DNA of 32,000 nt from Candidatus Methanoperedens sp. (GTDB lineage Archaea > Halobacteriota > Methanosarcinia > Methanosarcinales > Methanoperedenaceae): positions 150,001 through 182,000 of the forward strand of contig JAPZAR010000027.1 of the NCBI GenBank assembly GCA_027460535.1, given 5' to 3'. Numbering within the stretch: the stretch's first letter is position 1; each line of letters starts with the position of its first letter. The notes under the pieces were generated by a model. That model saw nothing but the letters and a program-made list of their open reading frames with translations, was not told the origin of the DNA and ran no database searches. Shown one piece after another: positions 21,008-27,686 of the stretch. Both the position numbers and the translations under genes were made by a program.

Positions 21008-21313
21008 ATGACAGAAGTAAGCGTATCTGCAAGGATTCCAGATGACGTATTTAAAGAACTTGAATCCTTTATGAAAGAAGAATCCCTTGAAAAATCTGCC
21101 TCAATAAGGAAATTGCTTGCAGAAGGGTTGCAGCATTGGAAAGAGGAGCGTGCGCTGAAATTATTGGAGGAGGGAAAAGTGACTTTTTTAAAAGCTGCGC
21201 AAATGGCAGGACTTTCTGTATGGGATTTCGCTGATCTTGTACGTGAAAAGGGGGTAGTCTGGGTCAAATCAGAGAAATTTGTGGACTCTGACATTAAAAA
21301 GGCGCTCCAATGA
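21008..21313 (+). CDS. RHH/UPF0175-family antitoxin-like protein
   Basis: The N-terminus is CopG/RHH-like (IPDDVFKELESFMKEESLEKSASIRKLLAEGL). The C-terminus is a UPF0175-like HTH (KVTFLKAAQMAGLSVWDFADLVREKG). The 3' end overlaps the next gene by 4 bp. Confidence 0.7.
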   Translation: MTEVSVSARIPDDVFKELESFMKEESLEKSASIRKLLAEGLQHWKEERALKLLEEGKVTFLKAAQMAGLSVWDFADLVREKGVVWVKSEKFVDSDIKKALQ

Positions 21314-21816
21314 AGCCTCTGATTTTTGATGCCACACCCCTGATTTACCATGGGAAGGCGAACCTCATTGAAAAAGTGAAACGTTTTCCTGAAGATAAAT
21401 ATACAACGAAATCTGTTTATAGAGAGGTTGTGGAGAAAGGAAAAAAAAGTGGAAAACCGGAGGTTTTTTTGATAGAATCTCTCTTCAAAAAAGATGAAAT
21501 TAAAATAAAAGACCCTTCCAATAAAAAATTTGTAGAACATCTAAAAGAAAATCCTAAAATCCATGAAGCTGATGTTGATGTTCTTGCATTAGCTTATGAA
21601 TTAAAGGGCATCGCGCTGATGGATGATGAAGAAGCAAGAGGTATGGCAGAAATAGAGGGAATAGAGCATCATGGGACTATCTATCTGCTTTTGAGAATGA
21701 GGAAACTGAAATTGCTCACGAAAGAGGAGGCTGTCGCTGGTCTCAATGAGATGATACGTATGGGCTGGAGATGTTCCACGGAGCTATATGCACGGATATT
21801 GATGGAGATAAAGTGA
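21310..21816 (+). CDS. PIN-like (DUF3368/COG2405-type) nucleic-acid-binding protein, putative toxin partner
   Basis: 168 aa with an N-terminal IFDATPLI (PIN acidic residue context) and later EADVDVLALA and DDEEAR acidic motifs. The UPF0175 + DUF3368 gene order is canonical. Confidence 0.6.
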   Translation: MKPLIFDATPLIYHGKANLIEKVKRFPEDKYTTKSVYREVVEKGKKSGKPEVFLIESLFKKDEIKIKDPSNKKFVEHLKENPKIHEADVDVLALAYELKGIALMDDEEARGMAEIEGIEHHGTIYLLLRMRKLKLLTKEEAVAGLNEMIRMGWRCSTELYARILMEIK

Positions 21817-23327: not shown

Positions 23328-23401
23328 GGGCTGGTAGCTTAGACAGGCAGAGCGTCGGACTCTTAATCCGACGGCCGTGGGTTCAAATCCCTCCCAGCCC
23401 G
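23328..23401 (+). tRNA. tRNA-Lys (anticodon CUU)
   Basis: Hand-folded cloverleaf of 74 nt. The acceptor is GGGCTGG/CCAGCCC, the D-arm GCTT..GAGC, and the anticodon arm TCGGA-CTCTTAA-TCCGA (CTT). It has a 5-nt variable loop and a T-arm GTGGG-TTCAAAT-CCCTC with one U-U mismatch. The discriminator is G and no CCA is encoded. Confidence 0.85.
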
Positions 23402-23677
23402 CTGATTTTTACGAAAAATCAACTAAGATGAGTATCGATACTCCTATATCCAAATGGAAGTATTACAAAATAAATGAGGACGCAGTTTTTGTATTAAAAG
23501 GCTCCAATAAGTTCTGGTCACAATTGTTTGTTTCTTCAGCACAATGGTTCATGAACATTTTCTAATTTGTTCATCTAAAATCTCATCTCTCTATTTTCGT
23601 TCCATCGACAGCTTAATATATGATAATAAAATAACATTAAGCTGTTAATTATTTTAACAATCACGGAGTGGTGTGAT

Positions 23678-24103
23678 ATGAAAGAAGAAAAATTGAAAAA
23701 TGATGAATCAATATCTGAACAACTTGAGAATAATAAGGACATAGAAGAAGCCAAAGCTATGTTGAAAGAATTAAAGATGGATGAATTAAATAAATACGAA
23801 GATGTTTTAAAAACTGTTCGCAATATTTTTCCCAATCTTGATAAAATTCTTACTCCGTTTGAAATAATTGATGCACTCGGATTAGTTGATATTGCTAAGG
23901 AAGGTTGTCAAGCGTGTCAACATTGCCAATTATGCCAAAATTGTAATACATGCCAGACATGTAATTCGTGCAACACTTGTCAGTTACAAGCACATGGAAT
24001 TTTTGAAGGAGTTCCTAGGCCTGCAGATTATTTAGCCAGGCTTCAATTAATTCAAATATTAAAAGTTCTTAGCAAGCATATTCCAATTGATAGGGAGAGT
24101 TAA
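23678..24103 (+). CDS. Cys-triplet-repeat peptide (candidate RiPP precursor)
   Basis: 141 aa. Residues 77-102 are CQACQHCQLCQNCNTCQTCNSCNTCQ, giving nine Cys at exact i+3 spacing, each followed by Gln or Asn. It has a charged helical N-terminal region of about 75 aa. A GGAGTGGTG RBS lies upstream, with a TATA-like ttaatatatgataataaaa at about 23614. Confidence 0.7.
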   Translation: MKEEKLKNDESISEQLENNKDIEEAKAMLKELKMDELNKYEDVLKTVRNIFPNLDKILTPFEIIDALGLVDIAKEGCQACQHCQLCQNCNTCQTCNSCNTCQLQAHGIFEGVPRPADYLARLQLIQILKVLSKHIPIDRES

Positions 24104-25247
24104 ATGCGTGTATATAGAATCCCTCAGTCTTGGTTTAACTAATAATTGCAATTTAAATTGTTCTTATTGCTTTGAAGGTAAAAAGAACAAATTGACTATG
24201 TCGGTTGATACTGCAAAGAAATCAATCGATTGGCTATTTCGGAATGATGTTTCAGGGCCTGTCAGTAAGGTAGATATTTCCTTTTTTGGAGGAGAACCTC
24301 TACTCGAAATGAACACAATTAAGGAGATAATTATATATGCTCGTGAAAAAGCTGAATTAATCGGAAAAGAAGCCAACTTTTCAGCGACAACAAATGGTGT
24401 TCTTTTTGATAAAGAAATTGCAGAATACTGGATTGAAAATAACCTTGGGATACTTTTGAGCTGTGATGGAATAAAAAAAGCTCATGATATCAGCAGAAAG
24501 TCTCAGTCAGGAGAGGGATCTTTTGATCTTGTTGAAAAGAACTTTGATAATGTACTTTCATTAAACAAGGGAAAAGAGGTTAGGATGACATATACTCCTC
24601 ATACATGTAAATATATAGCTGATGGAGTGCAATATTTGAGCAATTGCGGTTTTGAAAGTATTTCCGTTTTTCCTTCCGAAGAAATGAAATGGACTGATCA
24701 AGACTTACTTGCCTGCGAAGAAAGTTTTTACAAAACAGGTGAATTCTTGGTAAATGCTCTTGAAAAGAATATTACTTTAATTATAAATCCTATCTCAAAT
24801 CGATTAAAATCATTATTAAATGAAGATACCAAAGTTTTGAATAATGAAATGTGTGGAGCAGGACGAACCTACGTAGGAATTGGCGTTGATGGAACCATAT
24901 ACCCATGCCACAGATTTGCATCTCATAATAATTTTTCTGGAGCATATCCTATAGGTAACATAATTAACGGTCTTGACGAGATAAAACGGATCCCCTTCCT
25001 AAGAATGAAAAAAAACCTACTGCTGGGTTGTGACATTGAATGTGATATATGTAGTCTTCATGGTAATTGCACTGGTGGCTGTATGGCTGCTAATTATGAT
25101 GTAACAGGTCATTTAACTCTAAGACCAAGGTCATTAAGATTTCATGAAATGATTTGGGATAATGTAGCGAAATCAATGATCGATTACTTTAAAGAAAATA
25201 ACTATGAATCTTTTCGAGAAAAAATTCTTGGATCTAAGGGAATGTAA
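24087..25247 (+). CDS. Radical SAM enzyme with C-terminal SPASM domain (anSME/peptide-maturase family)
   Basis: CNLNCSYC (Cx3Cx2C) near the N-terminus. SPASM signature CGAGRTYVGIGVDGTIYPC ... CDICSLHGNCTGGC (Cx2Cx5Cx3C). An alternative GTG start at 24108 lies 4 nt after the peptide stop and is preceded by GGGAGAG. Confidence 0.88.
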   Translation: MIGRVKCVYIESLSLGLTNNCNLNCSYCFEGKKNKLTMSVDTAKKSIDWLFRNDVSGPVSKVDISFFGGEPLLEMNTIKEIIIYAREKAELIGKEANFSATTNGVLFDKEIAEYWIENNLGILLSCDGIKKAHDISRKSQSGEGSFDLVEKNFDNVLSLNKGKEVRMTYTPHTCKYIADGVQYLSNCGFESISVFPSEEMKWTDQDLLACEESFYKTGEFLVNALEKNITLIINPISNRLKSLLNEDTKVLNNEMCGAGRTYVGIGVDGTIYPCHRFASHNNFSGAYPIGNIINGLDEIKRIPFLRMKKNLLLGCDIECDICSLHGNCTGGCMAANYDVTGHLTLRPRSLRFHEMIWDNVAKSMIDYFKENNYESFREKILGSKGM

Positions 25248-25510
25248 CGAATTTGCTGAAACTTCTATAATGTGAAACAAATATTATAGGAGTTGAGGGG
25301 ACGTGACGAAATATTCACAAAAGAGCAAACAAGAACATGGTTGAGGGAAAACAATCTGAAGGACGGAAAAAGCATTGTTTTAACAATTGCAACCTGCCTG
25401 TGGTCCACTATTCGTTGAATTGTTCTATTTCCTTATTTCCATATTATTAGTAAATTATGCTGTATTTAATTAAAACGGTTTTTTTTGGGCTCAGCCAGCA
25501 CTTCATCTCA

Positions 25511-25560
25511 TAATCCGACCGCCGTGGGTTCAAATCCCTCCCAGCCCGCTATTGATTTTT
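25511..25560 (+). repeat. Direct repeat of tRNA-Lys 3' half (att-like), preceded by a degenerate tRNA-like 5' stub (25487-25510)
   Basis: See the mobile_element entry. After a 3-bp insertion (att), the downstream gattttt is also shared. The 62-nt gggctcagcc...cccagcccg segment lacks a D-arm and cannot fold as a tRNA. Confidence 0.75.
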
Positions 25561-25587: not shown

Positions 25588-25827
25588 ATGAGTATAGATG
25601 CTTTTGAGAGACTGCCAAGATTGAAATATCTCCACCGAAAGGATAATAAAAACCAATCTCAGCTGCTAAACACCTTTTCTAAATTCGCCGGAAAAAGAGA
25701 GATAACACAGCACCCGCAGCATTTTCCTGGATACATGATAAAATCAAAAAAAGGAGATGAACTAATATATCTATTGTTAATTCGATTAAAAAGGATAAGT
25801 GGACTTCCAGCTAACATTTGGGGATAA
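25588..25827 (+). CDS. Hypothetical small protein (weak call)
   Basis: 79-aa ORF with no recognisable motif. Its first codons (atgagtatagat) echo atgagtatcgat at 23428, downstream of the intact tRNA. Confidence 0.2.
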   Translation: MSIDAFERLPRLKYLHRKDNKNQSQLLNTFSKFAGKREITQHPQHFPGYMIKSKKGDELIYLLLIRLKRISGLPANIWG

Positions 25828-25892: not shown

Positions 25893-27686
25893 TTAATGTC
25901 TTCTCACCGTCAGCATTGTACTGCCACTCATTCCTCCATAGGTTGCATTGATTATAGTTGTTCCTGATGACAAGGCTCTGGCTAAACCAGTAGTAGCAGA
26001 TATTGTGGCTACCCCAGGATTTGAACTTGCCCAGGTGGCAAGGTTTGTTATATCTACTGTCGTTCCATCCGAATATTTCCCTGTTGCTCGATACGATAGT
26101 TTGGAGCCTATCGATATTGTGCGATTTGCCGGAGTCACTGAAATTGATACCAGAGTTGGAACAGTTGGAACTATAACTGTTATATTTGCATTATGAGTGA
26201 ATGAACTATTTGCGCCGGTCACTGTAACTGTATAAATCCCGGCAGCAGCAGTGGAGGAAACTGATATCGATAGTGCTGATGTGTTAAGACCTCCTGAGTG
26301 TATTACAAGTGAAGAATGGCTGAGATTAGTGGTTAAATCAGATGGATTAGATAGTGTTAATGAAACCGTGTCGCTGAATCCGTTAAGCGATGTTACAATT
26401 ATATTCGCAGTTCCCAGGGCCCCATTTTGGATTGTCAAAGTAGACGGCGAGGCTGAGATTGAGAAGTCAGCCGTTGCGGCCGCATTATAATTAACTGTGA
26501 GAGGACTGCCTAGACCAGTAACATAATCATAACCCGTCGTTGCAGTGCAATAATATCCACAAAGTCCATTTGTTCCGCTTAGTATATCTCTAAAATAAGA
26601 TGGATAATTTACTGATTTTGCATTTTGATAAAAGTTATTATTTGATGTAGAAAGTCCTACAGATTGGATTGCTGCCCATTGAGGTGCACCTGCGCTTGTT
26701 CCACCAACCGCCAACCACCCCCCGTAACCATATGTATCATACACCGATACTGGTGAATTCTGATAATCAGCGTTGTATGAAACATCAGGCACAGCACGTT
26801 TGCCATTTGTACGTGGTACGCCAAAGTTGATTTGATAAGACGGCTCAGTTTCATATACGCTCAGGCCTCCTCCACTTCCACTCCAGGCAGTCTCTGAAAC
26901 AAGCGAGCCACCGCTGAAAGTGAGACTGGTTCCACCAACTCCGACTACGTTTGATGAGACAGCAGGCCATAGCACACCCGCTCCTCCATCTCCAGAGGAG
27001 GCAAAGAATGTTATTGGTGCTCCATTAAGGCTCGTAAAATATGGATCAAAACTGGATTCTCCGGAAAACTCTCCTCCACCCCAGCTCATTGATATTGCCA
27101 CAACATCCGAGCGGCGCCGGGCATAATCAACTGCCGCGAGAAGATCATTTCCGCTGTTACTATTTGCTTCAACCAGAAGTATCTTTGCATTTTGTGCAAT
27201 TGCATGAGCCCATTGGGTATCAAGTGCTATCTCAAGTCCCCAACCACTGTCTGTAGGAATACTTGGCGACATCATATGTTTTTCAAAACAACCATTCGAA
27301 GTCGTGCATTGAGGCAGACCGAATGCACTGCTGAACACATTTAAATCACTTTCAACGTTCGGATCATCAAAAGCATCAATAATTGCAATTGTTCCGCTAC
27401 CTCCTGATGGAGGAAGATTATATACTGTTTTAATTTGCGCCGGGGAAAGAGGTGAAGCGATTGCTGGGCTAAGACCTCCACGAACATGGACTGGTGGTTG
27501 CGCTGACCAATTATGTGGAAACACATCTGGCAATATCCGTGGCGCATCTCCTTTTGAATGGCTTTCCGAGGCTGTGGCAATTGGGACTCCTGCAATGAGT
27601 ACCTGTAATATAAACGATACAGCGATGAAAATAGTGAACACTCGTGTTTGAATTTTTGTTTTTACCATTGTTTTTCGACCTGCCAA
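25893..27686 (-). CDS. Secreted S53 (sedolisin/kumamolisin-like) serine-carboxyl peptidase with C-terminal Ig-like (Big_2) domains
   Basis: Signal/TM segment FTIFIAVSFILQVLIAGVPIATA. Sedolisin blocks are GLEIALDTQWAHAIAQNA (E..D), ISMSWGG and GGTSAGAPQWAA (catalytic Ser). The C-terminal VSISVTPANRTISIGSKLSYRATGKYSDGTTVDITNLATWASSNPGVATI is a Big_2 pattern. Confidence 0.8.
   Translation of the reverse strand: MAGRKTMVKTKIQTRVFTIFIAVSFILQVLIAGVPIATASESHSKGDAPRILPDVFPHNWSAQPPVHVRGGLSPAIASPLSPAQIKTVYNLPPSGGSGTIAIIDAFDDPNVESDLNVFSSAFGLPQCTTSNGCFEKHMMSPSIPTDSGWGLEIALDTQWAHAIAQNAKILLVEANSNSGNDLLAAVDYARRRSDVVAISMSWGGGEFSGESSFDPYFTSLNGAPITFFASSGDGGAGVLWPAVSSNVVGVGGTSLTFSGGSLVSETAWSGSGGGLSVYETEPSYQINFGVPRTNGKRAVPDVSYNADYQNSPVSVYDTYGYGGWLAVGGTSAGAPQWAAIQSVGLSTSNNNFYQNAKSVNYPSYFRDILSGTNGLCGYYCTATTGYDYVTGLGSPLTVNYNAAATADFSISASPSTLTIQNGALGTANIIVTSLNGFSDTVSLTLSNPSDLTTNLSHSSLVIHSGGLNTSALSISVSSTAAAGIYTVTVTGANSSFTHNANITVIVPTVPTLVSISVTPANRTISIGSKLSYRATGKYSDGTTVDITNLATWASSNPGVATISATTGLARALSSGTTIINATYGGMSGSTMLTVRRH

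Follow-up and report, generated by a model that had tools for sequence, protein, structure and literature searches.

Gene and peptide at the locus

The 32,000-nucleotide stretch analyzed here (the window; positions 150,001 to 182,000 of contig JAPZAR010000027.1 from the Candidatus Methanoperedens sp. assembly GCA_027460535.1) contains two adjacent genes on its forward strand, one for a 141-residue peptide with a run of regularly spaced Cys residues and the other for a radical S-adenosylmethionine (SAM) enzyme with a SPASM domain. Coordinates refer to the window unless a locus of another contig (L numbers) is named. The gene for the peptide, a candidate precursor protein recognized from the list of open reading frames (ORFs), its homologues and family alignments, lies at 23678..24103 (+), including the TAA stop codon at 24101-24103, and its product can be divided into three regions. 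Residues 1-76 (23678..23905, +) form a leader-like N-terminal region, delimited by the family alignments and an AlphaFold2 (AF2) model, and residues 77-102 (23906..23983, +) form the core, a (C-x-x)9 repeat, CQACQHCQLCQNCNTCQTCNSCNTCQ, defined by the sequence, the family alignment and statistics on its three-residue units (triads). The remaining residues, 103-141 (23984..24100, +), form a C-terminal follower region, as indicated by the alignment consensus and an AF2 helix at 115-133. The second gene, at 24108..25247 (+), encodes the putative radical SAM/SPASM maturase, of 379 residues from a GTG start.

The peptide has nine Cys in total, at residues 77, 80, 83 and onwards to 101 (DNA 23906-23983), and the residue following the Cys is Gln or Asn in nine of nine cases, so that the pattern reported for this peptide in a first-pass annotation of the same DNA, nine Cys at i+3 spacing each followed by Gln/Asn, was borne out when the sequence was rechecked. 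The probability that nine Cys in 141 residues form one perfect period-3 run by chance is ~2.5e-12, and that of Gln or Asn at all nine post-Cys positions, from the Gln plus Asn frequency outside the core, is ~3e-10. No other (Cxx)nC run with n of at least 3 was found in the six frames of the window. The core contains no Asp or Glu. A DNA tandem repeat or slippage as the source of the period was rejected: Tandem Repeats Finder detected no tandem repeat in the DNA, and the codons are mixed (TGT/TGC for Cys, CAA/CAG for Gln, AAT/AAC for Asn), which together indicate that the Cys period is selected at the level of the protein, not of the DNA.

Searches of Pfam, NCBIfam and the PDB with the peptide and its family profile returned chance-level matches only (CUE, Nif11, RNase G, PsaC), which were inconsistent from member to member, and the database entry of an identical peptide is annotated as a hypothetical protein. 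The identical peptide is present on 7 contigs, with the same neighbourhood in all three of the three that were read. Methanoperedens enrichment samples in which the locus is present include SRR20964297 and SRR20964299. The AF2 model, built on an alignment of 10 sequences, is of low confidence (pLDDT 52) and was taken for helix positions alone; it places helices at residues 3-31, 37-50, 54-74 and 115-133, flanking an unstructured core. Purine-rich stretches resembling Shine-Dalgarno sequences precede both starts (GGAGTGGTG and GGGAGAG), and a T8 run lies 3′ of the enzyme gene; a sigma-70 promoter and terminator scan was uninformative for this archaeon.

Features of the radical SAM/SPASM enzyme

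The downstream ORF can be read from TTG 24087 or from GTG 24108, and both starts had been offered for the junction between the two genes. Since eight orthologues begin with M-Y/F-V/I-x-S at the position of GTG 24108, and the NCBI gene call for the locus likewise gives a 379-residue product, the later start is supported and TTG 24087 is not the true start. The radical SAM cluster motif and the SPASM Cys signature that had been noted in the enzyme were confirmed both in the sequence and by Pfam. The CX3CX2C motif, CNLNCSYC (24147..24170, +), contributes the Cys that ligate the radical SAM [4Fe-4S] cluster and aligns with CNLRCKYC of the SCIFF thioether synthase CteB. The SPASM Cys (C256, C274, C315, C319, C322, C328 and C332 in 386-residue numbering), located by the clade alignment and by comparison with the SPASM domain of CteB, lie at 24852..25082 (+), an interval that includes the motifs CGAG...GTIYPC and Cx3Cx2Cx5Cx3C; these seven Cys, together with C126 in LSCDG, are invariant throughout the enzyme clade. 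Pfam assigns the enzyme to the radical SAM superfamily with 45.1 bits (PF04055, cut-off 29.5) and, by a narrow pass, to the SPASM subfamily with 21.9 bits (PF13186, cut-off 21.5), and the threshold of Fer4_12 (PF13353) was also passed.

Among NCBIfam models the top match was PapB (NF047865), with 275.3 bits, below its cut-off of 340, and orthologues of the enzyme scored 271-288 bits, also below 340. The models next in rank were those of the nif11-peptide radical SAM enzyme (185 bits), the SCIFF maturase (TIGR03974; 180.7 bits, cut-off 425), QhpD (171 bits, cut-off 453) and the CXXX-repeat maturase (TIGR04115; 155.7 bits, cut-off 350), while lower scores were obtained for the anaerobic sulfatase-maturating enzyme (anSME; TIGR03942; 91.8 bits, cut-off 349), the RumMC sactisynthase (80 bits) and the Cys-every-fifth enzyme CefB (NF038107; 75 bits, cut-off 600). 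The orthologues gave the same ranking. On its sequence, the enzyme thus falls in the thioether-forming branch of the SPASM maturases, together with PapB, SCIFF/CteB, QhpD and the nif11-type enzymes. Because the PapB model covers the catalytic core only, and relatives with other substrates receive similar scores, the placement is in a thioether-maturase superclade and not in PapB itself.

The nearest solved structure is CteB (5WGG; E=1.5e-36), with which the CX3CX2C motif and the SPASM Cys align. This alignment begins at CteB residue 96 and the enzyme has only 13 residues before its first cluster Cys, indicating that it has no N-terminal RiPP recognition element (RRE) domain (RiPPs being peptides that are made on ribosomes and modified after translation). 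After the SPASM domain follows a conserved C-terminal helix specific to the clade, RPxxxRxHExIW..VA.S..DYF. An anSME identity, the outcome that would have spoken against a peptide maturase in the first-pass annotation, was rejected, given the score of the anSME model and the weak match to the anSME structure 4K37 (E=4.5e-9). An origin in a defence system or a phage was also rejected, since PADLOC and PHROGs returned generic radical SAM matches only.

Conservation of the gene pair

An exhaustive phmmer search with the peptide against 1.84 billion (1.84e9) representative proteins gave 13 matches, of which ~11 are true homologues of 137-169 residues; a word-indexed search returned the query alone, and its profile version 5 proteins. 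The 90%-identity clusters of the homologues contain one or two sequences each, indicating that the family is very rare, and its size is roughly a dozen clusters in ~15 billion proteins. Among 185,579 GTDB species representatives, a search with the enzyme alignment found one close homologue only.

A peptide homologue adjoins an orthologue of the enzyme in all 10 loci with readable context: the window, L001/L002, L003, L004, L005, L006/L007, L087, L095, L109 and L110. The enzymes of these loci are 50-62% identical to that of the window where measured. An eleventh pair, P0130 with P0007, is inferred only, from the fact that both proteins come from ENA and from a single 1869-bp contig. The enzyme gene precedes the peptide gene in L087 and L109, so that both gene orders occur in the family; adjacency kept through both orders points to a functional linkage that has survived rearrangement and not just to inherited synteny. 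The enzymes themselves form a discrete clade, with 44-65% identity inside it followed by a fall to at most 34%. No conserved third gene, whether for a discrete RRE, a protease, a transporter or anything else, was found by all-against-all blastp of the neighbours at 7 loci, in agreement with the lack of a protease or exporter already remarked on for the islet that holds the window pair. These data, all from gene context and homology, support the view that the peptide and the radical SAM/SPASM enzyme form a conserved functional pair. The pairing proposed from the window alone is thus found at every readable locus, in two arrangements, and the exhaustive search, a homologue search having been suggested as a check on co-occurrence, did not reveal the peptide homologues spread widely without an adjacent enzyme that would have argued otherwise.

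The named hosts of the other loci are bacterial, namely Zixibacteria (L004), WOR-3 (L006/L007) and Myxococcota (L087); the host of L001/L002 is a diderm bacterium with LptF/G, and other loci carry bacterial-type genes. Because the named relatives and the neighbouring genes are of bacterial type, and the archaeal copy is a low-GC insert, the family is a mostly bacterial one, without an archaeal origin. The description of the system as archaeal is therefore contradicted, the Methanoperedens copy having been acquired horizontally. Literature searches on CxxC-repeat/radical SAM systems and on Methanoperedens RiPPs found no description of the peptide family. The statement that the core belongs to no named class stands in so far as no Pfam, NCBIfam or PDB family and no paper was found for it, but target families with Cys repeats of period 4 and period 5 are already named. 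The Cys-every-third peptides are therefore best described as a new and very rare precursor family, a variant beside the named period-4 and period-5 families and not a new category.

Conservation within the peptide family

The leader-like region is charged, with a Lys-rich N-terminus (KKLKK), and carries a conserved motif, F/Y-P-x-I/F-D...L-T/S-P-x-E-I/L; L6, P52 and P60 are invariant, G68 is nearly so, and the residue at -1 of the first Cys is always Gly, Ala or Ser. Members of the family have 9-13 Cys, mostly in one period-3 run of at most 11, several having one or two extra Cys directly after the run and three showing one break of frame within the repeat. Invariant positions are the last six Cys and Q102, with Q87 and T100 almost so, and the terminal core motif C-N-T-C-Q-K is nearly invariant. 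The core is followed by a variable linker and then by a conserved amphipathic helix, R-x-Q-L-x-Q-x4-L-S; S132 of the follower is near-invariant.

When the triads were counted from the C-terminal end of the core, at which the statistics were anchored, the residue following the Cys was found to depend on position. At triad 0 all members (11/11) have Gln, at triad -1 8/11 have Asn, and at triad -2 Gln, Asn, Glu or Asp is present throughout (11/11). Gln occupies triads -3, -5 and -7 in 7/10, 9/10 and 7/8 members (Gln or Glu in 8/10, 10/10 and 8/8), while the residue varies at triads -4 and -6. Pro, Leu or Phe/Val/Ala follows the Cys in the triads nearest the N-terminus, for which there is no Cys at i-4. 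Overall, Gln, Asn, Glu or Asp occupy 70% of the post-Cys positions compared to 9% of the third positions of the triads, where 55% of the residues are Ser or Thr; Glu or Asp occurs at single positions in some members. The rule that every Cys is followed by Gln or Asn therefore holds for the window copy, but not for the family, in which the preference is position-specific and the N-terminal triads carry Pro, Leu or Phe. In the alignment, the nine of nine in the window is an extreme case of this position-specific pattern.

Comparison with known and related systems

QhpD, a radical SAM/SPASM enzyme, links Cys to Asp or Glu and makes several such thioethers in the small protein QhpC (the gamma subunit of quinohemoprotein amine dehydrogenase), which is kept uncleaved. 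The window pair differs from it in that no dehydrogenase subunit genes lie near the pair and the substrates are unrelated in sequence. SCIFF and CteB share a Cys-rich core with the window system, in addition to providing the nearest enzyme structure, and SCIFF is also a two-gene cassette of peptide and radical SAM enzyme that is not known to have a dedicated protease or exporter; the acceptor residue of CteB is Thr. SCIFF precursors are ~45 residues long and have six Cys without a fixed period, whereas the window peptide has 141 residues and nine Cys and gave no significant NCBIfam match, and the N-terminal RRE of ~95 residues in CteB is absent from the window enzyme.

PapA/PapB, the system of the ranthipeptide freyrasin (ranthipeptides being RiPPs in which a radical SAM enzyme has joined Cys sulfur to a non-alpha carbon), resembles the window pair in having a repeated Cys core with a polar residue at i+4 of the Cys. 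In the thioethers made by PapB, Cys is joined to Asp at the beta carbon or to Glu at the gamma carbon, the acceptor lying C-terminal to the Cys in CX3D (PMC9413430, PMC12373016), and the enzyme so far requires a carboxylate acceptor (PMC12373016), whereas the candidate acceptors in the window are Gln and Asn, outside the CX3D/E pattern of its substrates. The motifs of PapA are discrete CX3D units while those of the window overlap at period 3, and PapB is described as having an RRE domain and acting on a short leader (PMC9413430, PMC12373016), whereas the RRE-less window enzyme is paired with a substrate that has a leader of ~76 residues plus a follower. A precedent for an acceptor with an amide side chain is provided by NxxcA/NxxcB: NxxcB joins Cys to Asn at the beta carbon, with Gln also tolerated, and the product of CteB is described as a gamma-thioether (PMC9389541). 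The acceptor in NxxC lies on the N-terminal side of the Cys, at i-3, and the substrate is a short streptococcal peptide linked to quorum sensing; the likeness to the window system is drawn from descriptions.

The CXXX-repeat (TIGR04115) and Cys-every-fifth (CefA/CefB, NF038107) families also combine radical SAM/SPASM maturases with targets that have a fixed short Cys period, and the TIGR04115 model (359 positions, matched from position 3) resembles the window enzyme in having no N-terminal RRE region. Their periods are 4 and 5 compared to 3 in the window, where the precursor has ~140 residues with helices on both sides of the core. No paper on these two families was found in literature searches.

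Relatives of the enzyme are accompanied by other Cys-containing substrates. The sister enzyme P0010 (44% identity, the most divergent member of the clade) is paired with a different upstream peptide (L094 3-494), which contains five Cys at intervals of 6-9 residues, all of them with a downstream Asp or Glu, including CSWAD (CX3D), and a C-terminal helix; this peptide may represent an intermediate between substrates of the CX3D and Cxx-repeat types. In a Thermococcus metagenome-assembled genome (L018 5707-7504), the gene of a 485-residue radical SAM/SPASM relative precedes those of two short CX3D-repeat peptides and of a multi-pass membrane protein. The extra N-terminal region of this enzyme, of ~97 residues, is possibly an RRE domain, and the locus looks like an archaeal PapA/PapB-like system.

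Larger proteins with Cys repeats were also observed. In Bathyarchaeia (Candidatus Bathycorpusculum; L056 2329-3843 and L078 12-1205), proteins of 397-504 residues with Gln/Glu-rich C-terminal CxxxC/CxxC repeats are encoded directly upstream of a radical SAM/SPASM enzyme with a PapB-model score of 212 bits, these pairs apparently being related to Cys-repeat maturation systems but of protein size. At L091 3306-5203 (also L092 and L093), a 221-residue protein, P0134, with CxxC repeats at both termini, is encoded directly after a radical SAM gene of 410 residues, which has an in-frame TGA where the YPCHRF motif is expected, suggesting a recoded (TGA-sense) genome or phage.

Insertion beside a tRNA-Lys gene

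The gene pair lies in a low-GC islet of ~2.1 kb (23403..25486), of which the peptide and the enzyme are the only sizeable genes. Its left boundary, and the likely integration target, is an intact tRNA-Lys(CUU) at 23328..23402 (+), called by ARAGORN and by Rfam (RF00005, 67.2 bits) and identical to a tRNA in 13 metagenome contigs. Its right boundary is a decayed copy of this tRNA at 25487..25550 (+), recognized as a direct repeat by alignment to the tRNA and by a 23-mer that occurs twice where 0 occurrences are expected. Over its last 44 nt (25507-25550) the copy matches the 3′ part of the tRNA with 95% identity. It has lost 11 nt from the D-arm region, its mutated anticodon loop reads CAT, and neither ARAGORN nor Rfam called it as a tRNA. 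The GC content is 0.30-0.36 between the tRNA copies compared to 0.44-0.58 in the flanks. In L097 the intact tRNA is joined straight to right-flank sequence, as in an unoccupied site, with a similarity of only ~82 nt, and in L103 and L104 a gene for HMG-CoA reductase (92% amino-acid identity) is followed by tRNA-Lys and the cassette is absent. The flanking tRNA repeat, the GC drop, the unoccupied site and the cassette-free relatives indicate that the islet is, as judged from these comparisons, a strain-specific insertion at tRNA-Lys. The earlier description of a tRNA-flanked islet is accordingly right as to the insertion, but there is one true tRNA only and the element on the right is a remnant. 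Of the features of a mobile element at a tRNA, the direct repeat, the drop in GC and the empty site in relatives were seen, and no integrase was found in the islet in the ORF list or with PHROGs.

Small ORFs beginning MSID... lie at both junctions (23428-23565 and 25588-25827, +), indicating that the duplication reaches ~50 nt beyond the 3′ end of the tRNA; a similar start (VSIY...) directly follows the intact tRNA-Lys in L097, and the 79-residue ORF at the right junction (25588-25827) gave no family match. The islet is surrounded by chromosomal housekeeping genes (leuA-like, ilvB, ilvC and HMG-CoA reductase) together with an overlapping UPF0175-family and PIN/DUF3368 gene pair at 21008-21816 (+), upstream of HMG-CoA reductase, which looks like a toxin-antitoxin pair. 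A 597-residue protein encoded at 25893-27686 (-), separated from the right end of the islet by ~340 bp, has a kumamolisin/sedolisin-like (S53) region at residues 80-400 (PDB 1SIO, E=2.8e-16) followed by Ig-like Big_2 domains. This peptidase was rejected as a protease of the cassette, being outside the islet, on the opposite strand, of host-like GC and without a counterpart among the neighbours at the other loci, and is probably unrelated to it. In L101 (794-2127) an unrelated radical SAM/SPASM gene (27% identity to the window enzyme) lies ~95 bp after an identical tRNA-Lys, a proximity that is probably a coincidence. The Methanoperedens-like contig L104 carries arrays of the 10-nt unit ATCTGCGTTC at 151-184, 1583-1636 and 2330-2383, downstream of the tRNA-Lys.

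Proposed function and alternative explanations

The Cys-repeat feature is real and non-random, and the core idea of the first-pass annotation, that of a periodic Cys peptide modified by the radical SAM/SPASM enzyme beside it, survives testing to the extent that computation permits. We propose that the cassette, which came to the Methanoperedens genome by insertion at tRNA-Lys, is a self-contained two-gene system of post-translational modification, in which the 141-residue product, with its helical leader of ~76 residues, 26-residue core and helical follower of ~39 residues, would be the substrate of the adjacent RRE-less enzyme. By analogy with PapB, SCIFF/CteB, QhpD and the nif11-type enzymes, a core Cys thiol would be held on an auxiliary Fe-S cluster while the 5′-deoxyadenosyl radical takes a side-chain hydrogen from a nearby residue, giving a C-S thioether, and this reaction would be repeated many times along the core. 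The best candidates for acceptors are the conserved Gln, Asn and Glu after the Cys; period 3 puts the post-Cys residue of the next triad at i+4 of each Cys, the same distance as between Cys and acceptor in PapA (CX3D), with the motifs overlapping here to form a ladder. Since the enzyme has no RRE, recognition would probably depend on the conserved helices of leader and follower and on the C-terminal helix specific to the enzyme clade. The absence of a conserved protease or exporter suggests that the product may remain intracellular and uncleaved, as QhpC does and SCIFF peptides probably do.

On balance we consider it probable, by analogy with these enzymes, that the peptides constitute a new family of precursors, acted on by a ranthipeptide-like multi-thioether maturase, with thioethers formed on the peptide and Cys-to-Gln/Asn/Glu linkage favoured; as to the i+4 register and how many links are made, we can only guess. 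An acceptor role for the post-Cys residues fits with the invariant Gln after the last Cys, with the want of Gln, Asn, Glu or Asp in the first triads, where a Cys at i-4 is lacking, and with the two related systems, that of P0010 and that of Thermococcus, in which Cys is combined with a downstream Asp or Glu. The most novel form of the proposal, in which up to eight overlapping Cys(i)-to-Gln/Asn/Glu(i+4) thioethers in the window copy build an interlocked ladder within an uncleaved protein of ~140 residues, recognized independently of an RRE by its flanking helices, seems to us unlikely as a whole.

Several observations weigh against our proposal. Some post-Cys positions in the family are not Gln, Asn, Glu or Asp, which makes a complete ladder unlikely in most members, and the candidate acceptors in the window core are amides only, while PapB so far depends on carboxylates (PMC12373016). 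In length the precursors far exceed those typical of RiPPs, and their C-terminal helix is conserved. No RRE domain, protease or transporter accompanies the pair; the RiPP features seen are the conserved leader-like region and the Gly, Ala or Ser at -1 of the first Cys. Every NCBIfam score lies below the curated cut-off, the likeness being to a broad superclade, and the PapB model gives ~270-290 bits also to relatives with different substrates. The AF2 model of the peptide, lastly, is of the low confidence stated above.

The same enzyme and substrate could instead carry out another radical chemistry, such as the formation of alpha-carbon thioethers (sactionines), an oxidation that turns Cys into formylglycine or some other Cys-derived group, epimerization, or C-C or C-O links with Gln, Asn, Ser or Thr. 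SPASM enzymes are known for all of these reactions, and the NCBIfam models of sactisynthases, cyclophane synthases, DynA and anSME gave significant though lower scores, with no curated equivalog cut-off reached by any model; sactisynthases are moreover divergent in sequence (PMC10288494). The models of PapB, SCIFF, QhpD and nif11 nevertheless score about two to three times above those of sactisynthases, anSME and cyclophane synthases, the core has almost no aromatic residues for cyclophanes, and the position-specific conservation of Gln, Asn and Glu fits side-chain acceptors. The target motif of anSME, C/S-x-P/A-x-R, is absent from the core. We therefore assign such a chemistry a low probability. 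Metal binding also has to be considered, since overlapping CxxC motifs are classic metal ligands, and a long protein with conserved helices at both ends and no partner for cleavage or export could be a metallothionein- or polyferredoxin-like rod, an Fe-S cluster carrier or an electron donor that is not cross-linked. The family profile does weakly match the Fe-S protein PsaC and zinc-finger domains (E=0.18-0.9), but these PDB matches are not significant, and the ferredoxin-type spacing CxxCxxCxxxCP is absent. Metal binding alone fails to explain the strict pairing with a maturase at the 10 readable loci or the Gln, Asn and Glu beside the Cys, and the sister enzyme is paired with a Cys/Asp/Glu peptide that has no CxxC repeats, all of which makes this explanation decidedly improbable.

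Whatever its chemistry, the cassette in Methanoperedens might be an inert relic of horizontal transfer that has lost its integrase and is neither expressed nor functional. Its GC of 0.30-0.36 compared to ~0.45-0.55 in the host, the lack of an integrase in the islet, the decay of the right attachment (att) copy, the absence of the cassette from related contigs and the single close homologue among the GTDB species representatives would all be in keeping with this. Both ORFs are intact, however, all catalytic Cys are kept, the peptide is present on the 7 contigs mentioned above with one neighbourhood in the three that were read, and both starts and the end of the enzyme gene retain the Shine-Dalgarno-like stretches and the T8 run; we thus regard an inert relic as very improbable.

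Implications

If the proposed multi-thioether chemistry is true, this two-gene system would make the densest regular thioether array yet proposed, and would use as acceptors amide side chains that are unused by PapB, the workhorse of engineering. A ladder, if it exists, would add a new acceptor type for this branch of enzymes and a new cross-link topology, and would amount to a modification at the level of a protein rather than of a secreted peptide, while the RRE-less enzyme may reveal how SPASM maturases recognize long helical substrates. Mining for radical SAM RiPPs that is based on the RRE (for example, the dataset of PMC10288494) is unlikely to include the family, and no Pfam or NCBIfam model matches the peptide. 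For ANME-2d/Methanoperedens (ANME, anaerobic methanotrophic archaea), the cassette represents a recent gain of bacterium-like genes at a tRNA-Lys site whose content differs from one related contig to another. Given the extreme rarity of the family, its importance would be chemical and enzymological, not ecological.

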